DNA of 64,000 nucleotides, from positions 171,950 to 235,949 of the forward strand of contig NJBH01000002.1 in the NCBI GenBank assembly GCA_005223125.1. The letters run 5' to 3'. Shown here one piece after another: positions 2,010 through 64,000 of this stretch. Source of the stretch: Promethearchaeota archaeon Loki_b32 (GTDB lineage: Archaea; Asgardarchaeota; Lokiarchaeia; Sigyniarchaeales; SOKP01). The position numbers and the translations under genes are program-made. Position 1 is the stretch's first letter. Each line of letters opens with the position of its first letter. A model generated the notes under the pieces. The model saw nothing but the letters and a program-made list of their open reading frames with translations, had not been told where the DNA came from and did no database searches.

Positions 2010-2210
2010 AATAGATAATTATTGTATTTATTTTTAAATTCTCTAACTACTTTTTTATTAATTTTTATACTAGTATAAAAGAAACAATTAAATCTCACTC
2101 GTCTATAAAAATTGATAATCTATTAAAATTACATTTATAATTCACCTTTATTTAGATAAATTGAATCAAAATATAGCAAAGGATAATAATTGTATCTGAG
2201 GTAATTTACA

Positions 2211-2651
2211 ATTAAAGAAAAATTTGTACCTGTTCAAATTAATCAAGAATTATGTCTAAGATGTGAGCGATGTCTTCGAGCATGTAAAGCTAAAGCAATA
2301 TATTTCGAACATGGAATTAGAAAAGTTGATTACACTAAATGTAAAGCTTGTTTAAGTTGCGTTCAAGTATGTCCAAGGAATGCAATAGAGGTAACTTCTA
2401 TAACAAGTCCAGATCAAATTATTAGTATCAAAATAGATCATGAGAAATGTAATATGTGCGAGCAGTGTCTAGATGAGAATGGAAAATTCTCTCCTAAAAA
2501 TCTTTTTTATAAAGATATCGTGAAAAAAGTAGGAAGAGAGGAAGAAGGAATCAGGTATAAGTTTAGGGAAATTGTAAAATGTCAAGGATGCTTAAAGTGT
2601 GAATTATCTTGTCCAGAAGGAGCTATTAAGCCCGTGAAACTTGAAAATTAA
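2211..2651 (+). CDS. Polyferredoxin (4Fe-4S binding protein); extends 5' of the ORF-track call and probably starts at ATT
   Basis: Frame is open from 2205 (TAA at 2202-2204) and encodes CLRCERCLRAC and CKACLSCVQVCP upstream of the tracked ATG 2454, then CNMCEQC and CQGCLKCELSCP; GAGGT at 2198-2202 precedes ATT 2211. Confidence 0.8.
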   Translation: MKEKFVPVQINQELCLRCERCLRACKAKAIYFEHGIRKVDYTKCKACLSCVQVCPRNAIEVTSITSPDQIISIKIDHEKCNMCEQCLDENGKFSPKNLFYKDIVKKVGREEEGIRYKFREIVKCQGCLKCELSCPEGAIKPVKLEN

Positions 2652-2666
2652 ATCCATAATGGAAAT

Positions 2667-3245
2667 TTAGCTTTTCTCTTTAATTTTTTGTAATATAAGT
2701 TGCTTAATCTCAGAAAATTTTGAAATTACAACAATCCCTTCCATTTGTTTTAATTTTTTAATATTTTCAAGCTCAATATCTCTTATCTTTAAAACTAAGG
2801 TGGAGCCATTGGGCCGAGAAGTTACAATAGGCTCAGTATCTTGATCAGATGGAAAAATATAGACTGTCTGCCCACCTTTAATGGCTTGAGCTACACAATT
2901 TGTTATTAAAGTGTCAGCAATACCACAAACAATTTTAGCTACACTATTAGCAGAAACAGGACAGGCTAAAAACAGATCGTAATTTCCAAGTTGTAGAGGT
3001 CCTGCATAAAATGGAATATTAGGAGTTTTTTCTACTTTGACCTTTTTAACGGTTTCAGTCAATAGGAGCCATTTCTTATACCATTTAACAACTGCAGCGC
3101 CCTCTTTAGATAAAATTACAGTTATATCGATGTCATAATTATCTTGTAATTCTTTCATTAAATCAATTGATTCTCGCATTAAATACCCAGTTCCTGTTAT
3201 ACCCCAAATAAGTTTCATATCCTTCTGATCACCGTTCTTCTTCAT
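2667..3245 (-). CDS. afpA: Archaeoflavoprotein AfpA / dihydromethanopterin reductase-like flavoprotein
   Basis: KLIWGITGTG, PVSANSVAKIVCGIADTLITN, FPSD motifs of the HFCD/AfpA family; real start probably at MKLIWG. Confidence 0.75.
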   Translation of the reverse strand: MKKNGDQKDMKLIWGITGTGYLMRESIDLMKELQDNYDIDITVILSKEGAAVVKWYKKWLLLTETVKKVKVEKTPNIPFYAGPLQLGNYDLFLACPVSANSVAKIVCGIADTLITNCVAQAIKGGQTVYIFPSDQDTEPIVTSRPNGSTLVLKIRDIELENIKKLKQMEGIVVISKFSEIKQLILQKIKEKS

Positions 3246-3741
3246 ATAATCTTGGCAAAAATTCAGTAAAATATCCTATTTCTTCGATATTATGCTTTTT
3301 CAAATCTTCAATGAATGAATTTGGGACTTGAGCAGGTAAACGAAATGTTGATCGTAAGAAGGTTCCATTAGGAATTGATTGATATTCATGTAAAATCCAA
3401 CTAATAGGGTTATCTTTATTATTTAAAACACTTGCTGCATTTTTATGGTTAAACTCAGCCTTTATAGGTATTGAGTCAGGATTTTCCCATCGAATTCTTA
3501 ATGTTGTTGGTCTTCCTTCGATTATTTCAACAACACGATGTATTGCTCCCATATGGCCCTTCGCACTTTCAGGAGAGACTTCCCATTCAAATGATTTATG
3601 GTCTTTAGGATGCCATAATCTATAGCGTTCTGAATTATCAATATGATCCCACCACCAATCAATCATTTCAGGAGAAACTCTAGAGAGTTCATGTTCTACG
3701 ATTAGATCAATAGTTTCATTATTTGATTTTTTTTTATTCAT
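3229..3741 (-). CDS. DAPG hydrolase (PhlG)-like, Bet v1/START-fold protein
   Basis: SPEMIDWWW...RYRLWHPKDH, LRSTF, H..EE...EFLPRLY motifs. Confidence 0.7.
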   Translation of the reverse strand: MNKKKSNNETIDLIVEHELSRVSPEMIDWWWDHIDNSERYRLWHPKDHKSFEWEVSPESAKGHMGAIHRVVEIIEGRPTTLRIRWENPDSIPIKAEFNHKNAASVLNNKDNPISWILHEYQSIPNGTFLRSTFRLPAQVPNSFIEDLKKHNIEEIGYFTEFLPRLYEEER

Positions 3742-3894
3742 TTTTATTATTCGATTAGCGATTTTAGAAGTTAAAATTATTCCTAATTTATGAAAAATTA
3801 GCCTTATTTATAAAATCTAATGAAAAGAATTAATAATTTAAGCATGATAATTATTTAATTAGGATATTCTAATATTATAATTTTTAGATTTAAT

Positions 3895-5118
3895 ATGAAT
3901 GATTCGAAATATATTTACCTTGATAATGCTGCAACAACTCCAATGGACCCCCGAGTTATAGAGGAGGTAAATAAACATTTTAAAGAAACCTATGGAAATA
4001 CCTCAAGCCTACACTCAGTGGGACAAAAAGCGGGGCAAGTATTGTTGAAATCTCGTGAAATAATTGCTTCATTAATCAATGCTCATAGAGATGATATTTT
4101 CTTTACCTCTTCAGGAACAGAAGCGGATAATATGGCGATTTTTGGAGTTGTTTCAAGAAATAAAAAAAGAGGAAATCATATAATTACAACTTCAATTGAG
4201 CACCATGCAGTAGAAAACCCATATAAAGAATCAGAGAAAACTGGAATTGAAGTTACTTTTCTACCGGTCGATAAATATGGTTTAATTGAAATTAAAGACT
4301 TAGAGAATGCCATTACTGACAAAACCATATTAATTAGTATTATGTTTGCCAATAATGAAATTGGGACAATTGAGCCAATAAAAGAGATTGGAGCTATTGC
4401 GAAAAAACATGATATTATTTTTCACACCGATGCAGTTCAAGCTTTCGGAAAAGTTCCAATTGATGTAAATGAAATGAATATTGATCTGTTATCCGCTTCA
4501 GCTCATAAACTTTATGGCCCAAAAGGAGTAGGGATGCTATATATTCGCAATAAAGGTGTAAGAGAAGGATGGGGTAAATTTATGGACCCTCTTATGTATG
4601 GTGGTGGTCATGAAAGAGATATGAGACCAAGTACGGTAAATGTTCCCGGAATAGCGGGTTTTGCAAAAGCAGTAGAACTTGCTAAAGAAGAAATGGAAGA
4701 GGAATCTCTAAGACATATAAAATTAAGAGACAAAATTATAAAATGGGTAACAGAAAACATTGAAGATACATATTTGAATGGACATCCTACTCAAAGACTC
4801 CCAAATAACGTAAACCTCGGATTTAAATATATTGAAGGTGAATCAATTGTATTAGATTTAGATATGGAAGGAATAGCTACTTCAACGGGATCGGCTTGTT
4901 CTTCAAAAACCCTAGATCCTTCACATGTACTATTAGCAATCGGATTAAAACCAGAAGAAGCGCATGGTTCATTGAGAGTTTCTTTAGGAAGATTTACAAC
5001 TGATGAAGATATTGATTATTTCCTTGAAAAATTGCCCCCAATAATAGAGAGACTTAGAAAAATGTCACCTCTTAAAAAGGGTGTAAAGTATATGTTTAAT
5101 AATAAGGAACATAAATAA
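3895..5118 (+). CDS. iscS: Cysteine desulfurase
   Basis: YLDNAATTP, FTSSGTEADN, HTDAVQ, SAHKLYGPKG (PLP lysine), STGSACSS catalytic Cys. Confidence 0.96.
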   Translation: MNDSKYIYLDNAATTPMDPRVIEEVNKHFKETYGNTSSLHSVGQKAGQVLLKSREIIASLINAHRDDIFFTSSGTEADNMAIFGVVSRNKKRGNHIITTSIEHHAVENPYKESEKTGIEVTFLPVDKYGLIEIKDLENAITDKTILISIMFANNEIGTIEPIKEIGAIAKKHDIIFHTDAVQAFGKVPIDVNEMNIDLLSASAHKLYGPKGVGMLYIRNKGVREGWGKFMDPLMYGGGHERDMRPSTVNVPGIAGFAKAVELAKEEMEEESLRHIKLRDKIIKWVTENIEDTYLNGHPTQRLPNNVNLGFKYIEGESIVLDLDMEGIATSTGSACSSKTLDPSHVLLAIGLKPEEAHGSLRVSLGRFTTDEDIDYFLEKLPPIIERLRKMSPLKKGVKYMFNNKEHK

Positions 5119-5299
5119 CATCCTCATTAAGATTCATTTATTTGCTTAAGAGGAATTATCCCCGGTTTATTTTGATTCGTATTTCCTAATCCAAAATATA
5201 ATTTTGTTATAAGTTTAATATAAGAAATTAATTTTTATTTTTTATATCAAACACAATTATTAATAATTTTTAATTTATGTAAAAGGTTAGATTTTACTT

Positions 5300-5962
5300 A
5301 TGGACGATCAAAAAAAGCTCGCAATTGTAATATTAATAGGCGGAAAAAACATCCGCTTTGGAAACGAATCTGCTGCTGTTTTAGATGTACTCGGAAAACC
5401 GCTAATTTTACACCAAATAGAAACGCTTTCTAAATTTGACGAAGATGTTTTTTTGGTTGCTAACTCAGAATATCAGATTAATTCCTATTATAGGGAGATT
5501 AATTTTCCAAGAGACATTAACTTCATCGTTGATGATACAGAAATTATCGGGGAATCTGATGTAAGAACTCCAATGTTAGGTATATATTCTGGTTTCAAAG
5601 AACTAAATATTTTAGGTTTTGAAAAGGGCTTTCTATTATCGGGCGATATGCCTTTAATCAAACCTGAAGTGATCGAATTATTGATTAAAGAAGTCGAAGG
5701 ATACGATTGTTGTATTCCAAGATGGAATAATGGATTTTTGGAGCCATTATTCGCTATCTATCCTGTTGAAAAAACGTATGAACTTGCGAAAAAAACAATT
5801 CAAGAAAAAAATTATTCTTTAAATAGTATAATCGATAAAACTTGGAACATAAATTACATATCAGTTGAAGAATCGATAAAACCGTTAGATCAAAATTTAA
5901 TCGGCTTAATAAACATAAACGGACCAATCGATCTTGAGAAAGTAATCAAATTATACCAGTAA
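5300..5962 (+). CDS. mobA: Molybdenum cofactor guanylyltransferase MobA-like nucleotidyltransferase
   Basis: ILIGGKNIRFG, PMLGIYSG, SGDMPLI, EPLFAIY, NINGPIDL. Confidence 0.75.
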   Translation: MDDQKKLAIVILIGGKNIRFGNESAAVLDVLGKPLILHQIETLSKFDEDVFLVANSEYQINSYYREINFPRDINFIVDDTEIIGESDVRTPMLGIYSGFKELNILGFEKGFLLSGDMPLIKPEVIELLIKEVEGYDCCIPRWNNGFLEPLFAIYPVEKTYELAKKTIQEKNYSLNSIIDKTWNINYISVEESIKPLDQNLIGLININGPIDLEKVIKLYQ

Positions 5963-6041
5963 CTTTAATTTTTTCTTATTATCATTCTCTATTTTTTTTG
6001 CATCTTAATTTTTCTCAATAAACCTTATACTCTAAAAAAAA

Positions 6042-8357
6042 TTGTTTAACTTAATGGATAAAGAGGAATTTAAATTTTCAGATAAAAAAATTCCAATTGA
6101 AAGAAAAGATGAAATAGATTCTTCCTACAAAATTAAATCTTATAACTTGAAACTAAAATTTATGGAAGAAAGGAAAATTCCTCAAAGAGAAATTAAAGAT
6201 CTGCTTAATCATTTTTTTAATACTACTAAAGTTATCTCAAGAAAAACTAAAAACTCAATATCTAAAATAATTTACTCTCAAAAAGATAGAATCTTAATTG
6301 TGATTACTCCTTTGGGTAAAGATATTATTGTTAATCGAGATAGATTAAGTAGAGATTATGGATGGTTCTTTTTCATAGAAAAACCTAAAAAAAAGGAAAA
6401 AGATTTAAAAAAGAAGAAACCAAAAAAAAAAGAAGAAAGGAAAGAAGAGAAAACATTAAGTACGGAAGACTTTCCTTTTGATGATTCAATTGTTCCGTTA
6501 AAAGAAAAAATAAATATGCGTTCGTTATATCGTACAAAAGAATATGATCATTACTTGAAATTGATTAAATCTGGAGATATATCTCAATTACCTGTGAAAG
6601 ATGTCCTAAATGACTTATTCTTTAAAGATGAGACCATTCCCCTTGAAGAAAAAAAGGGAATTAGAAAAATCATATATTATCAAAAAGAAAAGGTCATTGT
6701 CATAAAGTCTCTTATAGGAGATGAACTATATGAAAATTTAGAAAGATTAGTTAAAAAGTACGGTTGGTATTTTTACATTACTGGAGTTCCAGTAGGGAAA
6801 AGTGAACTTTGTATCGCAATTGATAAAGTTGAAAAGAGATTTGAATTGGATTACTTTAAAAATATATCTCTTGCGGAAGATTCAAATAATTCTAGTGATA
6901 TAAGAGTAACAATTTATCCAATCGTCCTGAAACCTAACCATAATTGCCACATTCTAGGTTTAGGGAATCTTAATATTTTATTGGATTGCGGACTTTCGGA
7001 GAAAGATGAAGAAAATGAAATTGAAGGAGATTTTAGGCATATTGAAGATTATATGCTAAATTTACCGCAATATATTACCGAAGAAGAAAAAATTCGAAAA
7101 GAAATAGTTGATGAGGATTCAGATGAGGTGATCTTAGAAGAGATCCCAAAGAATCCAAAAATAGACGCTATATTTCTCAGTCATAGTCATTATGATCATG
7201 TTTCAGGACTTAAAGAACTAATTAAATTATATCCAGATACTCCACTTTTAAGTTCAAGAATAACATTAGATTTATATCTACTTAGAGATTCGAATTTCTT
7301 AAAACAAGAGACACATAATGAAATTGAAGAAGAAGAATACCAAAATATAGTTAAGAATATTATATATGTTGAAAATGGTACTAAAATCGAATTTAAAGAA
7401 AGAAATTGCTTTCTCTCATTTTTTCATGCTGGTCATATGCCTGGAGCATTGATGTTATTGGCAAAAATAAATGATTTTAAGTTTTTATACACAGGAGATT
7501 ATACTTATATCGATATAACTCCATTTGCGGGTACAAGACGATTTTTAGAACAAATTTCTCATCCTATTGATTATTTATTGATTGATGGTACAGCCGCTCA
7601 AGAAGATTTTGGCAATATTTCTGATCAATTTCATAGCCTAATTTTATTTTTAGAACAAAAAGCAGAATATGGGGATAATTCATTAATTGGAGCGGATCCT
7701 TCAAGTTTAGCCATAAGTTTTATGTTAACTTTTTGGAGATATTTTAGAAAGCAACAATTAAGGCGTGGTTTCAAAAAACGTCCAAATATTTATGTCGATA
7801 TGATGGTGAGGAGAAATATCCAAGTTATAAACCATCGCTATGAATATATCTATGGTCCAATTTCAAGACTAATTCGTGATAAAGCAAATCCATTTAATAG
7901 CATAAAATTTAGATGGTTTGATCATACTAATTTAAACTTTTTACGCAAGAAAAATAATATAATAATTTCCCATCCACCTGACCTTTCTTACGGATTAATA
8001 AGAAATATTATTAATGTTGTTGGACGAAATCCTCATAATTTTGTTTTTTTAGCAGGATCCATCCATGATCCTCCGGGTTCAGATCTACTAGAAGGTGCTG
8101 AAGAAATAGAATTTTCTGAGACATGGAAAATGCCATTTCGGGCATTATTACTCAATACATTTGCGCCTCACATTAAAATTAAACTCCATGCTGATAAAAA
8201 TCAGTTGCTGGAAATGATAAAAAACTTGGAGCCGAAAGAAGTTTGCTTTTTCCACCAATCAGCTAGAAAATTGGTAGAAGTAGTTGAATATGTACAAGAA
8301 TTGGGCGTTGATAAAGTCTCTTTACCTGTAAAAAGAAAGCTTAAAATATTGAATTAA
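6042..8357 (+). CDS. beta-CASP family metallo-beta-lactamase nuclease with duplicated N-terminal KH-like module
   Basis: LLDCG, HSHYDH, HAGHMPG, YTGD, IDGT, LHAD, FFHQ motifs; two ~65-aa repeats ending in YGWFFFI / YGWYFYI. Confidence 0.75.
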   Translation: MFNLMDKEEFKFSDKKIPIERKDEIDSSYKIKSYNLKLKFMEERKIPQREIKDLLNHFFNTTKVISRKTKNSISKIIYSQKDRILIVITPLGKDIIVNRDRLSRDYGWFFFIEKPKKKEKDLKKKKPKKKEERKEEKTLSTEDFPFDDSIVPLKEKINMRSLYRTKEYDHYLKLIKSGDISQLPVKDVLNDLFFKDETIPLEEKKGIRKIIYYQKEKVIVIKSLIGDELYENLERLVKKYGWYFYITGVPVGKSELCIAIDKVEKRFELDYFKNISLAEDSNNSSDIRVTIYPIVLKPNHNCHILGLGNLNILLDCGLSEKDEENEIEGDFRHIEDYMLNLPQYITEEEKIRKEIVDEDSDEVILEEIPKNPKIDAIFLSHSHYDHVSGLKELIKLYPDTPLLSSRITLDLYLLRDSNFLKQETHNEIEEEEYQNIVKNIIYVENGTKIEFKERNCFLSFFHAGHMPGALMLLAKINDFKFLYTGDYTYIDITPFAGTRRFLEQISHPIDYLLIDGTAAQEDFGNISDQFHSLILFLEQKAEYGDNSLIGADPSSLAISFMLTFWRYFRKQQLRRGFKKRPNIYVDMMVRRNIQVINHRYEYIYGPISRLIRDKANPFNSIKFRWFDHTNLNFLRKKNNIIISHPPDLSYGLIRNIINVVGRNPHNFVFLAGSIHDPPGSDLLEGAEEIEFSETWKMPFRALLLNTFAPHIKIKLHADKNQLLEMIKNLEPKEVCFFHQSARKLVEVVEYVQELGVDKVSLPVKRKLKILN

Positions 8358-8383
8358 GAATTTTTAAAAAAATAAATATTAGT

Positions 8384-8749
8384 TTATTCAGTAAAATCGC
8401 CTAGATCTTTTATAGCCATAAAATCACCCAAAAATGCTTTTTTTAGGAGTTCAGAAGCTTTTTCCCATAGATTCTCTAAAATATTTTGTACATTTATCAT
8501 ATCTTCCTTATTTTTAAATTCAATAGTAATTTTTTGAGATTCTTCATCTACATTTATATCCATTTGAATGTCTTCTGTTAAACCCCCAATTACTTTAAGC
8601 ATGTCTTTTACTTCACTCTCTTTACCTAATTCATCCTTTCTTTTTTTTTCTCCTTTAAAATCTAAACTAATTTTAAGTTTTATATCATCTATATTGATTG
8701 ATACCTGTTCTTTTAACATATTTTTTAATCCATCTATTATATTTTCCAT
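8384..8749 (-). CDS. Hypothetical protein (start at MENIIDG)
   Basis: GGAGGAGG upstream of ATG 8749 on the minus strand; the longer ORF-track start overlaps the upstream hydrolase gene. Confidence 0.65.
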   Translation of the reverse strand: MENIIDGLKNMLKEQVSINIDDIKLKISLDFKGEKKRKDELGKESEVKDMLKVIGGLTEDIQMDINVDEESQKITIEFKNKEDMINVQNILENLWEKASELLKKAFLGDFMAIKDLGDFTE

Positions 8750-8768
8750 ATTAAATCCTCCTCCTTCT

Positions 8769-10598
8769 TTAACTATTATTCTTTTTTTTAATGGGAACAT
8801 CAATATAGGACGCGTAAGAGGCATTTCGTGCAATAGTAATGGTAGGTTTTCCATCAGTTGGGTATTTTCTAAAAGTATCTTTATCAGCTCCCGCGATGGC
8901 AAGTTTGAGTCTATGTCCTTTTCGAATAAGGACAGACGTCGGTCGAAATCCGAAAGTTACTTCTGTGATTTCCCCCGGTATCATTGGAGAGGCATCTTTC
9001 TTTTTAAAAGAATGGTAGGGAATTAATATTTCATATGGGGGTGTATCCGTGGATATTTTACGGTGAATTAATCTTAAATTTCCATCTGTAAAATAATGTA
9101 TGTTTCCATTATCATCTATTTCTTCTAAATAAGCAAATATTGCTCCATCATCGTGAGTTGATCTAAGAAATAATGTAATCGTGGCATGACCTGTGATCTC
9201 CACATCCTCTTCAAAAGGCGGACTTGTATATGTCAATAACTTTTTATCTGCTTTTTCTCTATTTGAGTAATCAATTGGTAAACCTAATAATGTCCACCAC
9301 CTATTTAATCTACCAGATGTGGCGGTAAAGCTTACTTTATAATTATCTTCTCCTGCATCATTTTCAGGTTTCTTTGTAGTTATTGTATTATTTTCAGATA
9401 AATACCATTTCATTCTTGTAAATCCTTCAGGTGGCCAAACTTGAGTTTTATTCCATTTTTCTTCTCCCATTGTGTAATAATACAAAGTTTTTCCTTTAAT
9501 TTCCTCTCCATATAGAATTGAGTCAAAAAAATCAATCCATGTAGTAATACGCTCTTTTGGAGAAGGAGTGACTTCGGGTTTATCCGGATTTAAAGGATCA
9601 GCAGGATATAAAGCTCCATGATTCCATGCTCCAATTATTGCAATGTGAGGATTTTTCAAATTTATAAACCTATTTATGTGAGCATCAATATAAGCTGAAT
9701 CTAACCAAGCACACCAACTCAATATAGGCACATTAGATTTTTCAAACTGATCTTGGTAAATAAAAGAACTAATCTCATCTGGTGTTGCTCCATCTGGAAG
9801 AGAATCATCTCGAAAATCTTTATCATGAAGTAAATCATAGACATATTCATTTGAAAGATGTTCTTCCTTAGCTTCTTCTAATATTTTCTGATCTGTATCA
9901 ATATCAATAGGTTTTACCCCTTTCATCAATAACCATAAATACGGAATTAGTTCTTTAAAAGCTTTAGAATTGTTTTGATCAAGATTTCTTCCTACAAAGG
10001 ACCAAAGTTGTACAAATGCGTGATCAAAACAGCCCCCAGGAAAAGCGACATCAGTATAAGCATCCCATAACCCGTGACCCGGCATAATAGCTTTGACAGC
10101 GGGATGATTATTTACTGCTAACTGTTCCGCAGTTGTTGCAGTATAAGATATTCCATTAGAAACAACATTTCCATTTGACCAAGGTTGAGAAATAATCCAA
10201 TCTACAATATCAGCGCCATCTTTAACTTCTTCTTTTGAAAATGGATAAGGTCTTGATCCAAAAGAAGCACCGCATCCTCTCACGTCTACATACACTATTG
10301 CATAACCACGCTTAGTGAATAATGCAGGTGAAGGTGTAAAAATTGATGTTTCTTTAAGTACCCATCGAAAAGGAATTCTAAGTTTTGCAGCTCTCCAATA
10401 TCTTGTTTGATATAATAATGTAGGAAGTTTTTGTTCGGGATCTATTCCTTTAGGAAGACATATAGTAACTGCAATTTTTACTCCATCTCTCATAGGAATA
10501 TGGATATTACTGGTTGTATAATCTTTATAGGTCTTTCTTTGGGGAAAATTCCACTTCAGATGAAATGGATTATTATCACTTTCGATATTTTTACTCAT
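8769..10598 (-). CDS. CocE/NonD family hydrolase (peptidase S15-like)
   Basis: IPMRDGVKIA, VDVRGCGASFG, QPWSNGNV, GISY nucleophile, IGAWNH, C-terminal LTYTSPP..GHRLKLAI domain. Confidence 0.92.
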   Translation of the reverse strand: MSKNIESDNNPFHLKWNFPQRKTYKDYTTSNIHIPMRDGVKIAVTICLPKGIDPEQKLPTLLYQTRYWRAAKLRIPFRWVLKETSIFTPSPALFTKRGYAIVYVDVRGCGASFGSRPYPFSKEEVKDGADIVDWIISQPWSNGNVVSNGISYTATTAEQLAVNNHPAVKAIMPGHGLWDAYTDVAFPGGCFDHAFVQLWSFVGRNLDQNNSKAFKELIPYLWLLMKGVKPIDIDTDQKILEEAKEEHLSNEYVYDLLHDKDFRDDSLPDGATPDEISSFIYQDQFEKSNVPILSWCAWLDSAYIDAHINRFINLKNPHIAIIGAWNHGALYPADPLNPDKPEVTPSPKERITTWIDFFDSILYGEEIKGKTLYYYTMGEEKWNKTQVWPPEGFTRMKWYLSENNTITTKKPENDAGEDNYKVSFTATSGRLNRWWTLLGLPIDYSNREKADKKLLTYTSPPFEEDVEITGHATITLFLRSTHDDGAIFAYLEEIDDNGNIHYFTDGNLRLIHRKISTDTPPYEILIPYHSFKKKDASPMIPGEITEVTFGFRPTSVLIRKGHRLKLAIAGADKDTFRKYPTDGKPTITIARNASYASYIDVPIKKKNNS

Positions 10599-10778
10599 AA
10601 TTGTTTCTCTAATCCTAATTTAAATTCTTAAGATAATATAATACTATTTTTATCTTCTGTTATTTATTAAGTTACTTCTTCTGATAATCAATTGAATTTA
10701 TTAAATGTAAACCATAAATCTTTAAGGAAATGATCTCTTATACATCATAGAACTAAATTATTGATAAGGTGTATAAAG

Positions 10779-11159
10779 ATTTACTCTGATAAAGTCCTGG
10801 ACCACTTTAAAAATCCCCGAAATATGGGTGAAATGAAGGACGCTGATGCAGTAGGCGAATATGGAAATCCTATATGTGGCGATTTAATGCATATATATAT
10901 TAAGGTGAAAGAGATGAATGGACAAAAAATTATTGATGACATCTCTTTTCAGACTTTTGGTTGCGCTGCTGCTATTGCTACATCTTCTATGATTACAGAG
11001 ATTGCTAAAGGAAAAACTTTAGATGAAGCTTCAAATATTACCAGAGATGATGTAGCTAAATCTTTAGATGGACTACCTCCTATTAAATTGCATTGTTCAA
11101 ATTTAGCTGCAGACGCCTTAAAAGATGCTATTAAAAATTATCGAGAAAACCAAAAATAA
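10779..11159 (+). CDS. iscU: Fe-S cluster scaffold IscU/NifU (probable ATT start)
   Basis: YSDKVLDHFKNPRNMG, GNPICGD, FGCAAAIA, LPPIKLHCS; AGGTG at 10767-10771 precedes ATT 10779 and gives the family-typical MYSDKV start. Confidence 0.95.
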   Translation: MYSDKVLDHFKNPRNMGEMKDADAVGEYGNPICGDLMHIYIKVKEMNGQKIIDDISFQTFGCAAAIATSSMITEIAKGKTLDEASNITRDDVAKSLDGLPPIKLHCSNLAADALKDAIKNYRENQK

Positions 11160-11207
11160 AATTCTTTTTCCTCTTCAATTAGAAATTAAAGTTTATTCTT
11201 TACTCTT

Positions 11208-12080
11208 ATGGAATTTTCTAAACCAATAATAAACATTATTCAAGAGCGAATATCTCATAGAACTTATTCTGGACACTCTCTTGAAAAAGTTCTTAGAGAA
11301 AAGGTATTGAATTTATTGGAAAATCATGATTTGATAAGTCCTTTTAGTAAATATGCTGGAAAAGCAAGATTTAGGCTTTTAAGCATTCCAGAGTTTAACT
11401 CTAAAGAAAGGAAAAAGTTAGGGACTTATGGATTCATAAAGGGCGCTCAAGATTTTATTGTAGGAGCAGTTGAAAAATCTCAGTACAGTCGAGAACATTA
11501 TGGATATCTTATGGAAACTATTATTTTAGGTGCCACAGATTTGGGGTTAGGCACATGTTGGTTAGGTGGTTTTTTTAACAGAAGTCTATTTACTTCGAAA
11601 ATTAATTGTACATCAGATGAAATCATACCTGCTATTACACCCATTGGATATTCTGCTCAGAGAACAGTTAGAGAAAAGGTTATTCGATCATTTGCTAAAG
11701 CAGATAAAAGATTGCCTTGGGATCAATTATTTTTTGAAGGAAATCATAGTGTTTCATTATCTAAGGAAAAAGCAGGCAAGTATTCAAAACTACTTGAAAT
11801 GGTTAGATTAGGGCCATCTGCTGGGAACAAACAACCTTGGCGGATATTTAAAGTACTCACCAGAGATACTTTTCATTTTTATACCATTAACCCTAAAGAT
11901 GGACGATTTTTGCAATACAGCAAATTTCGACCTATAGATATCGGAATAGCTGTTAGTCACTTTGATCTTACGGCAAAAGAATTAGGCATTAATGGGAATT
12001 GGATAATTGAGACTCCTCAAATTCCCGGAGCAGACGACTTAATATATAAGATTACTTGGAATGGGGATGACAAAAAATAA
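11208..12080 (+). CDS. Nitroreductase family protein
   Basis: RISHRTY, GTYGFIKGA, LGLGTCWLGG, GPSAGNKQPW, IDIGIA. Confidence 0.88.
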   Translation: MEFSKPIINIIQERISHRTYSGHSLEKVLREKVLNLLENHDLISPFSKYAGKARFRLLSIPEFNSKERKKLGTYGFIKGAQDFIVGAVEKSQYSREHYGYLMETIILGATDLGLGTCWLGGFFNRSLFTSKINCTSDEIIPAITPIGYSAQRTVREKVIRSFAKADKRLPWDQLFFEGNHSVSLSKEKAGKYSKLLEMVRLGPSAGNKQPWRIFKVLTRDTFHFYTINPKDGRFLQYSKFRPIDIGIAVSHFDLTAKELGINGNWIIETPQIPGADDLIYKITWNGDDKK

Positions 12081-12100
12081 GTCAATCTAATTATTAATAT

Positions 12101-12349
12101 ATGATTTTAGGAGTAGGGGCTGTATTATTAGTAATTATTATTTTAACATACATTGTAATTCATTACAATACCCATAACGATTCAATAAATCCATTAAAAA
12201 ATGAATATTATGAAAATAATGAGATAAAATCCCCTAAAACCGATGATAAGGAGTTTTCTTTAGGAAATGCTAATTTTTGTTATAATTGCGGTAAAAAATT
12301 AGATTATAATTCAGTAAAATTTTGCATATATTGTGGAGTAGAAATTTAA
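12101..12349 (+). CDS. Small membrane-anchored zinc-ribbon protein
   Basis: N-terminal hydrophobic helix; C-terminal FCYNCG...FCIYCG. Confidence 0.65.
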   Translation: MILGVGAVLLVIIILTYIVIHYNTHNDSINPLKNEYYENNEIKSPKTDDKEFSLGNANFCYNCGKKLDYNSVKFCIYCGVEI

Positions 12350-12493
12350 TTGAAATAACTTGAAGTTTTATAACCTAAACGATTAAATACAGATTATTAT
12401 GAAACCAAAATGAGAAGTTAATTTACAAATTATAAACAAAAGGTATAATTATCAAAGTTAGTAATTAGAAATATGAGAAAAAGGTGATTTTTC

Positions 12494-15391
12494 ATAACAG
12501 AAACTAAAGAAAATATAAATATTAAGTTAGGTGGAATGACATGCGCTAATTGCGCTTTGAAGATCGAAACAAAGTTAAATAATCTTGAAGGTGTCAATAC
12601 AGCAGTAGTTAACTTTGCTAATGAGGAGGCAACAGTTGATTATGATCCTAGAACCGTTGATTTTACTGTTTTTAAGGATGCAATTCGTGATCTTGGTTAT
12701 AAAGCATCATTAGCTAAAATCGATTTAAAAGTTGTAGATACCCTTTCTGAAAGTGAATTTGAAAATTTCATTAAGAAGATAAAAACTATCCAAGGAATTC
12801 ATGATATCAGAGGGAACTACAAAGCTTCCAAGATGTTCATTGAATTCAATGAATTAATTATAGATGAAAATGGCGTATATTCTACAATAAAGCAATTGGG
12901 CTATACTATTGAGAAATCCGCAGGAGTAATGGATATGGAGATTATTAAGCATAAGAAAGAAATGAGATATCGTTTACGTATTATGTTAATTTCACTAACG
13001 TTTTCACTAATAATTACTCCTATTAGCTGGCTTGTAATAGAATCTTTCGAAAGGAATTTAGTCCTATTTTTTCTCGCAGTTGCTAATTACCTTATTTCTG
13101 GCTCTTTCTTTTTGATTGGAGCATACAAATCTTTGAAGAATAAATCTACAAACATGGATGTATTAGTCGCTTTAGGCACCACAACAGCACTTATTTATTC
13201 CATATTAACGACATTTATCATATCTGGAAATACCTTTTACGAAGCTATGAGTATGATAATTACTTTCTTACTAGTCGGAAAATATCTTGAACATAAAACT
13301 AAGGGACAGACTTCAGAAGCTATAAAAAAATTAATCGGTTTACAACCAAAAACTGCTACAATTTTAAAAGATGGAAAAGAAATTGAGATTCCTATTGAAG
13401 AAATTGAGTTAGGAGATACATTAGTTGTGAGACCTGGTGAAAAAATTCCTGTGGATGGAAAAGTTGTTGAAGGAAAAACTAAAGTAGATGAATCAATGAT
13501 CACAGGTGAAAGTAAGTATGTTAAAAAAGAAATTGAGAGTGAGGTAATTGGGGCAACAGTAAATCAGACTGGATTAATTCATATGATTGCTGAGAAAATC
13601 GGTAAAGATACATTACTATTTCAGATTATAGATTTTGTAAAACAAGCTCAAGGTAGAAAAGCAGCTAAACAGCAATTAGCCGATAAAGTTAGTAATTATT
13701 TTGTACCATTAGTTATTATAATAGCAGTAAGTTCATTTTTATACTGGTTTTTTATTGGAACTCAAGTATTCCCAGTACTTCAAGCTACTAGACTTGAAAC
13801 CTCTTTGTTAGTCTTTACTTCAGTAGTTGTTATAGCATGTCCTTGCGCTTTAGGACTTGCAATTCCAACCGCTGTAATGGTTGGTACAGGTAAAGGTGCT
13901 GAAAATGGTCTTTTAATTAAAGGAGGTGATTCACTGGAATCGATCAATACAATTAACACTATTGTTTTTGATAAAACAGGTACTTTGACGGTTGGAAAGC
14001 CAAAAGTTTCGGTAATTTTTACTGAAAAGGATTTGAATAATACAGGTTATGATGAAAATGAACTACTATTTTATGCTGGAAGTGCTGAAATGGGATCAGA
14101 ACATCCTCTTGGAAGGGCCATCATTGAAGAAGCAAATCAAAGAGGATTATCTCTCGAATCACCAAAAGAATTTGATGCTTTTCCTGGAAAAGGCATTAAA
14201 ACTAAAATTAAAGGAAAAACAGTATTAATTGGAAATAATAAATTAATGTTAGACAATGGTATATCAATTGAAGATTATAAGAACAAATTTAATGAATATC
14301 AGCAATATGGTATAACAACAATTTTAATCAGTATTGATAATACAATCAAAGGTATAATAGGGATTTCTGATAAAATAAAGGATCAAGCACCCTATGCTTT
14401 AGATAAATTACGAGAAACTGGTTTAGAAATTTATATGTTAACAGGAGATAACATGCAAACAGCTTTAATTATTGGAAAACAATTAAAAATTGATGATCAA
14501 CATATTTTGGCAGAGGTTTTACCTAATGAGAAAGCTTTAACTATTCAAAAATTGCAGGAGTCTGGAGACCATAAGGTTGTCGGTATGGTGGGTGATGGAA
14601 TAAATGATGCTCCTGCATTAGCTCAAGCGGATGTTGGAATAGCAATAGGATCTGGAACTGATGTCGCCATTGAAACTGCTGATATTGTTCTGATGAGAGG
14701 AGATTTACGAAATGTTGTTTCTGCCATTAATTTATCAAAAAAGACTTATAAAAAGATGATAACAAATCTATTCTGGGCTTTTATTTATAATGTTATCGGA
14801 ATACCAATCGCAGCTGGTGTATTTTATGGTTTAACTGGACTATTTCTGCCACCTTATTTAGCAGCAGTTTTTATGGCAACAAGTTCGGTTTCCGTAGTAA
14901 CAAATGCTTTATTTTTAAAAAAATATGAACCAAAAACACCTCAACAACTTGAAGAAGAAATGTTATTGGTTTCTCAAGAGAAAGTAACAGATCCAGTATG
15001 TGGAATGGAAATTGATCCAAGACAAGCAATTGAATATGAATATAAAAGTAAAATATATCATTTTTGCAATCCTAATTGTGAAACTCATTTCAAACGAGAT
15101 CCTGAAAGATTTAAGAATTATGATGCAATGGATCCAAAACTTATGCAAATAAAAAGCCCTGATAGTAACAAAAAAGAAGAAAGTGTAATTGAGAATGAAC
15201 AAACTAAAAAGGAGGATAAAAATATGGGAAAATTAAAATGTTCGGAATGTGGATTAGAGCAAGATCTTCCAATGCATTGTGGACAAGCCATGCATAAAGA
15301 AGGAGATCAATTAGTCTGCTGGATGGGTTCTAGCTGTGGAGCTCAACTAATTCCAGAACATCATGGAAAACATATGGAAGTTATTGAATAA
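12494..15391 (+). CDS. copA: Copper-translocating P1B-type ATPase with C-terminal YHS/TRASH and Cys/His-rich domains (probable ATA start)
   Basis: GMTCANC HMA motif, [25 protein letters not shown]; DPVCGM...HFC YHS domain; GGTGA at 12483-12487 precedes ATA 12494. Confidence 0.95.
15211..15226 (+). promoter_or_regulatory. Internal GGAGG ribosome-binding site and in-frame ATG (15224) inside copA
   Basis: GGAGGATAAAAATATG, in frame with copA, immediately before the terminal [10 protein letters not shown] domain. Confidence 0.5.
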
Positions 15392-38362: not shown

Positions 38363-38389
38363 ACGTGTTTTCTTAGAAGGTGTCTAAAT

Positions 38390-38878
38390 TTGGCAAAATA
38401 TCATATGAGACGGATTGAAAAAGAAATCTCAAATAGAGAAGAATTGATAGGAATCCTAAAAAGTGGAAAATATACTATTATTTCCCTATGCAAAGAGAAT
38501 GAACCATATATTATCACCCTAAGTTATGGATACGATGAGTCTAAACATGCTTTGTATTTCCACTGTGCTAAAGAAGGGCAAAAAATAGATTTTATAAAAG
38601 CTAATCCCCATATATGTGGAACTGTTATAGAAGACAATGGTTATGAGGATGGTTGTGGTCAAGCATTTCGCTCAATTGTATTTAGGGGAAAAATGGTAAT
38701 TGTTGAAGCTTTAGATGAAAAAAAGAAAGGATTAGATATTTTAATAAATCACTTGGAAAAAGATCCTAATCCTATTAAGAATAAATTCTTAAAGAAAGAA
38801 AATACCTATGAAAACTTAGGGATGTTGAGATTAGATATAACTGATATTTCTGGTAAAGAGGAAAAAGCAGAATCTTAA
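38390..38878 (+). CDS. Pyridoxamine 5'-phosphate oxidase-like (NimA-type) FMN-binding protein
   Basis: MRRIEKEI, PYIITLSYG, LYFHCAKEGQKI, FRSIV, ISGK. Confidence 0.9.
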   Translation: MAKYHMRRIEKEISNREELIGILKSGKYTIISLCKENEPYIITLSYGYDESKHALYFHCAKEGQKIDFIKANPHICGTVIEDNGYEDGCGQAFRSIVFRGKMVIVEALDEKKKGLDILINHLEKDPNPIKNKFLKKENTYENLGMLRLDITDISGKEEKAES

Positions 38879-41508: not shown

Positions 41509-42138
41509 TTATTTAAAATATTCCATTATAAAGTCAAATAGTATGTCTGGATAATTTGTGTAAATTGCTTTTACTCGTTGATTATGATAGTTTAATTCTA
41601 TAACTTTCTTCATACCCATTTTTGTATTAACTCCCCAAACGTAACAATTAAAGCCATTATCGATTATTATTTTAAATAAATCTTCAATATTTCTTGAAAA
41701 TTTTAAGTTTATTATTTTGACATCTAATTCCTTTAATTTTTTAAAATTTTGAGTTTCATTTTTGATTATATTAATATTTCCTGTTAAAGTGTATATAAAC
41801 TTAACTTTCTTGTTTTCATTCCTTAGTTGAGACAAAACTTTTAATCTACTGTCTGTAATTTCTATTTTATTTAGGAGAGAGAATTCTTTTGCGGTAATTA
41901 AAAGTTTCACGCCTACTTCTTTATTTGCAATATCAAAGCTAAACCTTACCTCATTTGAGCTATTCCTAAATGCTTGAAAGACCTCGTCAACCAACGGAAT
42001 TTTTCTTCCATCTTTAAACTTGATTTTCTCAATCTCTTCGAAAGTTAATCTTCTTACAGAGATATATTTCTCGCCTATTTTGAATCCTCCATCGTGAAAA
42101 CAAATTAACTTTTTGTCTTTAGTTGCTCGAATATCTGT
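41509..42138 (-). pseudogene. Glycerophosphodiester phosphodiesterase, C-terminal part lacking the N-terminal HRG motif
   Basis: Frame reads TDIRATKDKKLICFHD..IPLVDEVF..YVWGVN..IYTNYPD; an in-frame TAG lies just upstream; the N-terminus is at 49589-49891. Confidence 0.85.
41963..42138 (+). repeat. Left direct repeat of island (176 bp, internal to GDPD gene)
   Basis: Aligns without gaps to 49614-49789; 12 mismatches by manual count, first 54 bp identical. Confidence 0.95.
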
Positions 42139-42141
42139 GTA

Positions 42142-42387
42142 TTGAAGAAATATTTTAAAAATCTAATTGATTTTTCTCAACTCGATAAAAAAACAATTCT
42201 CTATATTATAATCTTTATTACTTTAGTTGTATTTTCCGTTTTCTTGCTTTATTATAATTATTTTGTTGATAGAACGTTTATCTATGTAATTGTTGCAAAT
42301 TGGTTTGTAAATCCGATTTATGAATTACAAATCATTGGAATATTTCTTTTTATAGGAATCATGACAATTCAAGTTCTATTCAAGTGA
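42142..42387 (+). pseudogene. Truncated, diverged copy of the VTT/DedA gene at 49991-50842
   Basis: KKYFKNL..FVNP..GIFLFI.IM.IQ; about 44/76 identical residues by manual alignment; stops where the intact gene continues. Confidence 0.85.
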
Positions 42388-63727: not shown

Positions 63728-63904
63728 AGTTTCGATTGCCATGTATATTGCATTATTAATGTTAATAATTATAAAGCTATACAATTATTACAACAATTTG
63801 AGAAAACACATCGTGGACATAGAACTCAAATAATAAACATTGATGAATTAAAAACAAAAGCCCCATCGGACATTGGTTATACATGTGTATCAGACTTGAA
63901 TTGA
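63728..63904 (+). pseudogene. Degraded tandem paralogue of 63493-63696
   Basis: SFDCHVY..QQFEKTHRGHRTQIINIDEL aligns to CFTCDQY..KNFKERHRTHMTSVIALSEM; in-frame TAG at 63719, no start. Confidence 0.55.
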
Positions 63905-64000
63905 GAGGAGTAATATAAAATACCATTCCCAACTAAAAGAGAAATGGAATATATGAGGAAATATATCTATGATCATTTAGATAACTTTCATGGAACATTA

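Follow-up and report, generated by a model that had tools for sequence, protein, structure and literature searches.

Translation start sites were analysed in a stretch of 64,000 nucleotides (nt), referred to below as the window, from the Asgard archaeon Promethearchaeota archaeon Loki_b32 (contig NJBH01000002.1, positions 171,950 to 235,949 of the forward strand; C21:171950-235949 of the draft genome G000). The genome is a metagenome-assembled draft of 4.13 Mb in 71 contigs with 29.9% G+C. Three genes of the window, for a small polyferredoxin, an IscU-type scaffold protein and a copper ATPase (CopA), carry ATT, ATT and ATA, respectively, at the position expected for the start codon, each at the same distance behind a Shine–Dalgarno (SD) site. 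ATT, ATA and ATC are written collectively as ATH (AUH in the mRNA), and ATG, GTG and TTG are called canonical; SD spacing is counted from the T of GGT to the position where the start codon begins. The sites concerned, and one canonical start used as a reference, are as follows.

2197..2204, + strand: SD site TGAGGTAA of the polyferredoxin gene, read from the sequence; the upstream frame is closed by the in-frame TAA (2202-2204) that the site contains.
2211..2651, + strand: small polyferredoxin of 146 residues with several 4Fe-4S motifs, start ATT 2211; there is no canonical start earlier than ATG 2454.
10766..10771, + strand: SD site AAGGTG of iscU, T at 10770, read from the sequence.
10779..11159, + strand: iscU, NifU_N scaffold protein of 126 residues, start ATT 10779, from Pfam and orthologues.
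12481..12487, + strand: SD site AAGGTGA of copA (6-nt match, spacing 9); its TGA (12485-12487) is an in-frame stop.
12494..15391, + strand: copA, P1B-type copper ATPase of 965 residues with HMA, E1-E2 ATPase, HAD and YHS domains, start ATA 12494, from Pfam and orthologues.
38377..38392, + strand: reference case, AAGGTG followed at spacing 9 by the canonical start TTG 38390, read from the sequence.

The three genes and TTG 38390 share a spacing of 9 nt, and the identical spacing described in the sequence-only reading, a first description of this DNA made from its letters, was confirmed by reading. In the polyferredoxin gene, the SD stretch GAGGTAA contains TAA 2202-2204 in frame, ATT follows at 2211, and the next in-frame ATG, GTG or TTG is ATG 2454, 81 codons past the ATT. 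Fer4 (4Fe-4S) domains were matched by Pfam at residues 8-30 and 38-60 counted from the ATT; the claim that TAA 2202 leaves no canonical codon before two 4Fe-4S motifs was thus borne out by both the sequence and the domain search. In iscU, NifU_N covers residues 2-125 (profile positions 2-124 of 127). In copA, TGA 12485 is in frame and the next ATG after the ATA, at 12536, encodes the M of the metal-binding motif GMTCxxC; the HMA domain occupies residues 11-70 (profile positions 3-62 of 62), in agreement with the proposal that ATA 12494 preserves the beta-strand in front of that motif. A domain cut at the start of the open reading frame (ORF), as in a pseudogene, was seen in some other ORFs of the genome that have a long leader before their first canonical codon; in the three window genes the profiles begin at positions 2-3.

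Orthologues were searched for in 40 relatives, 24 of them of the same genus, and the start regions were aligned per gene. The counts rest on 17-23 independently assembled same-genus genomes, and the ORFs of the three genes were intact in 17-23 relatives. At the position of copA ATA 12494 the orthologues carried ATG (10) or GTG (1), and three more distant ones had ATA one codon upstream, at a spacing of 8-9; two or three in-frame stops preceded the gene in the orthologues, with no conserved upstream ATG. At the iscU position ATT was found ten times, ATA six times, and ATG and GTA once each. An AGGTGA-type SD at the same spacing was present in the 16 orthologues with ATT or ATA and in the one with GTA, and the lone ATG orthologue (L030) had a GAGGT site at a different spacing. 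The polyferredoxin position was occupied by ATT (15) or ATA (2), mostly behind TGAGGTAAT, the form in which the SD was kept in at least 14 same-genus orthologues. One of the ATT orthologues (L071) had a TTG start three codons upstream and two (L068, L069) an ambiguous TTG at that distance; four further genomes, with TTC or TTT in place of the ATH codon, had their TTG start a few codons upstream.

For iscU the choice of ATT 10779 stood, on the SD spacing, the NifU_N match from residue 2 and the orthologues, and an in-frame TTG at 10761 had been overlooked. This TTG was rejected as a start: it lies upstream of the SD site at 10766-10771 and is unconserved. The orthologues that could be read most clearly have the TGA of GGTGA in frame at -9, by which any iscU start further upstream is excluded in them.

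ATH starts were then counted over the whole genome. Briefly, the SD consensus AGGAGGTGA was derived from unambiguous ATG genes and its matches were anchored in register; an open frame of at least 100 codons had to follow, the stretch back to the preceding in-frame stop had to be free of canonical starts, and codons were tabulated per spacing. Removal of overlapping shadow ORFs left 3,440 ORFs. Behind SDs of at least 5 nt at a spacing of 8-10, canonical starts numbered 185 (ATG 134, TTG 39, GTG 12) and ATH codons were ATT 39, ATA 32 and ATC 7, as against AAT 5, TAT 9, TTA 8 and TTT 4 for A/T-matched control codons at the same SD and spacing. The 71 occurrences of ATT and ATA versus 26 for the four controls gave a binomial p of ~5e-13. 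The net ATH count of ~61 equals 25% of strong-SD starts, or 1.8% of genes. With SDs of 4 nt, an excess of ~27 (net) stood against 334 canonical starts (~7.5%). The modal SD spacing for ATG in the genome is 9-10, and the ATH peak was confined to 9-10 while ATG spread over 7-12. From the excess at spacing 9-10 and its weakening behind 4-nt SDs it follows that ATH starts go with strong, optimally spaced SDs.

A TGA or TAA inside the SD (GGTGA or GGTAA), as at 2202 and 12485 in the window, very often shares the reading frame of the start 9 nt further on, so that the SD itself closes the upstream frame. The commonest position of an ATH start was two codons after a stop (9 of 40).

An estimate independent of the SD was also made. 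In a non-overlapping gene set, 335 ORFs had at least 20 codons before their first canonical start, and ~196 of these looked coding over that leader; a first count of 247 long-leader ORFs had been discarded, being contaminated by antisense shadow ORFs. A random 20 long-leader ORFs without a strong SD comprised 4-5 clear non-canonical starts and 4-5 fragments of broken genes, the rest being undecided. The fragments included two pieces of MFS transporters, DUF354, a beta-eliminating lyase and GDPD, and the sample indicates that broken genes, or frameshifts left uncorrected, are fairly numerous in the genome. In view of these fragments, which Pfam revealed, the SD-independent estimate was discounted. 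ATH starts account for at least 1.8-2.6% of genes; a share of 3-7% is plausible, though unproven.

Pfam was run on the 40 candidates with the longest gap between the ATH codon and the next canonical start. A match was obtained for 25, and in 18 of these the domain began upstream of the next canonical start (1 ambiguous, 6 undecided), with its onset at profile positions 1 to 29, mostly 1-5. The families that would be cut were rubrerythrin, a PLP enzyme, HepT, two ferredoxins, a short-chain dehydrogenase (ATC), two Ras-family GTPases, an aminotransferase, Roadblock, a condensation domain, ribosomal L16/L10e (ATC), NikR, DUF134, AFOR_N (the N-terminal domain of aldehyde:ferredoxin oxidoreductase), a phosphodiesterase, ADH_N and FAA hydrolase. 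Paralogue pairs were found in which both members share the ATH start. Two adjacent paralogues at G000:C22:21716-23286 both have ATT behind AAGGTGA and nearly identical N-termini, and the Ras-family paralogues at C65:21242 and C18:121-648 both start at ATA. Ras-family GTPases, Roadblock proteins and tRNA genes with several introns, all noted in the genome, fit an Asgard (Loki-type) archaeon.

The gene for the initiator tRNA was located by its anticodon-stem pattern at G000:C48:102824-102968, having been missed by ARAGORN and by the Rfam tRNA search. The spliced product is a tRNA-Met(CAT); it has A1:U72, and its anticodon stem contains three G:C pairs. The gene has two introns, one of ~32 nt at the canonical 37/38 site and one of 34 nt in the T-loop. 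Because of such introns only 15-25 tRNAs were detectable with ARAGORN and Rfam in the whole genome. The anticodon is CAT, and an anticodon change therefore does not explain the starts.

The gene for the initiation factor aIF1 (G000:C48:127289-127606, - strand) has no ATG, GTG or TTG between the upstream stop and the zinc knuckle, and ATT is the third codon after that stop. The ATT start was present in all 22 same-genus genomes with readable sequence. Across 61 species representatives (loci L232-L329) it was ATT in 58 and ATC in 3, and no canonical codon was available as an alternative ahead of the zinc knuckle. Other genera of the order had ATA, GTG or TTG, and no ATG was found among those examined. 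Proteins 80-98% identical to this aIF1 occur in more than 60 species. The motif AAAGGTTGTGATAA upstream of aIF1 is almost invariant.

On these sequence comparisons, the starts at ATT and ATA, and less often at ATC, are very probably genuine near-cognate translation starts. The earlier suggestion that the lineage uses ATH initiation routinely gains support from the interchange of ATT, ATA, ATG and GTG at the three positions in the orthologues, from the strong excess of ATT, ATA and ATC at spacing 8-10 in the genome-wide scan, from the 18 of 40 candidates with a Pfam domain crossing the next canonical start, and from the database record of copA described below. Several observations weigh against this reading. 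The iscU orthologue L033 (G017:C30) has GTA at the start position behind the same SD and without an in-frame canonical codon nearby, and this is unexplained. The ATT of aIF1 is at a non-optimal distance, 12-15 nt, from its best SD-like motif. Some 12 of the 40 candidates may be spurious, being short ORFs that Pfam did not match. In the random sample of 20, gene fragments were as frequent as clear non-canonical starts, which renders the true ATH total uncertain. Finally, a 16S rRNA gene was searched for as the source of the real anti-SD sequence and was not found in the draft genome, so that the anti-SD was deduced from the SD motif.

The starts could be real and yet depend on a specialised mechanism, such as a modified C34 in the initiator tRNA, changes in aIF1 or aIF2, or isoleucine as the initiating amino acid. 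Modification has a precedent in 5-formylcytidine (f5C), which lets mitochondrial tRNA-Met read AUA. The share of ~25% ATH among strong-SD starts is far above what would be tolerable at the 1-2% efficiency known from Escherichia coli (10.1101/063800), and aIF1, in the 61 species, is always encoded behind ATT or ATC. Against this, the initiator tRNA gene is ordinary, and no second initiator-like tRNA with another anticodon was found in a quick, non-exhaustive scan for the anticodon-stem pattern. A specialised mechanism of this kind was judged unlikely.

It is far less likely that the SD-like motifs are chance matches and that translation begins at the next downstream canonical codon, giving shorter proteins. 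SD-like 5-mers are common within coding sequence, and the public annotation does call copA from ATG 12536: the protein record from the same contig has 951 residues, and 9 of its 10 cluster mates have the same form. One relative with more than 90% identity is, however, recorded with 965 residues and starts exactly at the ATA position, which upholds the expectation that standard gene callers truncate such genes. The exact truncated forms of the polyferredoxin and of iscU were absent from the protein collection that holds the copA record. With downstream starts the polyferredoxin would lose two 4Fe-4S clusters, the HMA domain its beta-strand 1 and NifU_N 15 residues, and domains would be cut in 18 of the 25 Pfam-positive candidates; the control codons are not enriched, and orthologues carry ATG or GTG exactly at the ATH position. 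The segments between the ATH codon and the next canonical start also score as coding (0.33 and 0.27, compared with 0.35 after real ATGs). This score was dropped as a discriminator, as it did not separate ATH from other codons; other SD-like sites also lie in coding sequence, and it shows only that the segments after ATH are coding.

An assembly or consensus error, by which the true base would be G and the codons really ATG, is scarcely credible. The genome is a metagenome-assembled draft of many contigs, where such errors may be suspected, but ATT or ATA stands at the same position in 16-17 independent genomes for iscU and the polyferredoxin, aIF1 has ATT or ATC in 61 species, and the ATH start is common to the members of paralogue pairs. 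For the three sites consensus error is excluded, since the orthologue genomes were assembled independently. Equally hard to sustain is recoding, in which the TGA or TAA within the SD would be read through from an upstream start, or another genetic code would apply: ATG 12473 and TTG 2190 are in frame with copA and the polyferredoxin gene with a single stop between each and its gene, but these mini-frames are only 4 codons long and overlap the SD, read-through from ATG 12473 past TGA 12485 is excluded by the two or three upstream stops and the lack of a conserved upstream ATG in copA orthologues, and TAA (2930), TGA (886) and TAG (641) all end long ORFs at normal frequencies. Leaderless initiation was rejected, all three genes having an SD, and a promoter signal (TATA box or B recognition element, BRE) at a fixed distance of ~25-30 nt before the start codon was not found even among the SD-less ATG genes of the genome.

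The genuine near-cognate starts proposed here have parallels in known systems. The same codon set is used for initiation in the A+T-rich genomes of mitochondria (NCBI tables 2 and 5), and it occurs among the rare starts of table 11. Mitochondria have no SD and use a modified tRNA-Met. The starts described here differ in being SD-dependent, with a standard tRNA gene, and internal ATH codons remain isoleucine.

The codons AUA, AUC and AUU support initiation in E. coli at 1-2% of the level seen with AUG, and natural cases are confirmed there only for the AUU starts of infC and pcnB (10.1101/063800). As there, a near-cognate AUH codon stands behind an SD and the initiator tRNA is normal; the likeness to infC extends to a proofreading-factor gene that itself uses a weak codon (infC in bacteria, aIF1 here). 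The two confirmed genes of E. coli contrast with at least ~60-90 here, about a quarter of strong-SD starts; the archaeal host also has eukaryotic-type factors (aIF1, aIF1A and aIF2), and autoregulation is only proposed here. In eukaryotes, eIF1 is a homologous factor that polices start choice and whose own gene has a weak start, its expression being autoregulated through a poor start context (PMC4705826). Here there is neither scanning nor Kozak context, and selection is set by the SD spacing.

Within the Asgard archaea, the tubulin AtubA of Kariarchaeaceae was repaired in a 2026 paper with an upstream 'rare ATT start codon' (PMC13394414). There too a deposited protein lacked its first beta-strand, which was restored by an upstream ATT at a plausible distance from a ribosome-binding site; that case was a one-off correction for cloning, whereas the present starts are genome-wide, conserved and quantified, and come from another Asgard family. 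A systematic description of ATH starts was not found in the literature searched, which yielded only this single-gene remark. Breadth was checked in samples of 400 kb, which are too small for a firm answer. Two genomes of 30% G+C from another family (400 kb each) had 4 and 8 ATH codons behind a strong SD, compared with ~3 controls each, with convincing cases such as an FtsX-like permease and a TsaA-like protein; this is a hint that they also use ATH starts. No ATH starts were found in the 400 kb sample of a genome of the same order with 53% G+C.

In the mechanism proposed, the SD AGGAGGTGA of the mRNA would pair with the 3' end of 16S rRNA, and this pairing would position the ribosomal P site 9-10 nt past the T of GGT. 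There the ordinary initiator Met-tRNA (CAU) would be accepted despite the mismatch at the third codon position, so that the protein would most likely begin with methionine. In a lineage of 30% G+C, mutation pressure would convert ATG to ATA or ATT, and a strong, optimally spaced SD may hold the complex, so that the weaker codon is tolerated and kept. We infer decoding of AUH as methionine, a relaxed or titratable proofreading, and a feedback loop through aIF1. Work on Sulfolobus solfataricus, cited in PMC6237735, has aIF1 favouring discrimination against non-canonical starts. The position of aIF1 behind ATT or ATC throughout the clade suggests a loop like that of infC, in which less aIF1 would allow more AUH initiation, and hence the synthesis of more aIF1; with such a loop, all the ATH genes together would respond to how much aIF1 is present.

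A further step, possible but doubtful, is that the ATH starts form a regulon tuned by the aIF1 level, with aIF1 regulating itself, and are not mere tolerated drift. Its membership can be sketched just as tentatively, and would take in Ras-like GTPases, genes of metal and Fe-S homeostasis, a ribosomal protein and aIF1, in all several percent of genes.

Two other sites in the window were set apart from these starts. The first had been put forward in the sequence-only reading as a weaker fourth case.

63920..63922, + strand: ATA after GAGGAG, unsupported as a start; repeat copies have early in-frame stops.

The codon is present as written, and the start was rejected. The end of the window (63729-64000, the last ~270 nt) is a repeat that is 81-93% identical to 1-4 copies elsewhere. 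Copies that are nearly identical have an in-frame stop 3-7 codons after the ATA, and the conserved ORF of ~50 codons in the repeat begins at a downstream ATG. The distribution of the repeat is patchy: of 30 same-genus genomes only 6 contained it, with up to 4 copies each. It probably marks one end of a mobile element and probably accounts for the contig ending at this point. The second site is the GDPD ORF at 41509-42162 (- strand), in which the first canonical start is codon 56 and the Pfam match begins at residue 9, at profile position 29. It is probably a broken gene that lacks the catalytic N-terminal part, rather than a case of an ATH start.

Asgard archaea are known mainly through proteins predicted from metagenomes. 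If 2% of genes or more use starts that callers of the Prodigal type ignore, many deposited Asgard proteins would lack their first strand, helix or metal site. Such truncation would include eukaryote-like GTPases and cytoskeletal proteins and would distort structure predictions, expression constructs and phylogenies. A lineage with eukaryote-type factors in which AUU or AUA serves at roughly one in four strong-SD sites, and in which aIF1 itself is encoded behind AUU, would be a natural system for studying how the stringency of start-codon choice is set and regulated. The regulon, if true, would represent in archaea the counterpart, and perhaps the precursor, of the eIF1-controlled near-cognate initiation of eukaryotes.

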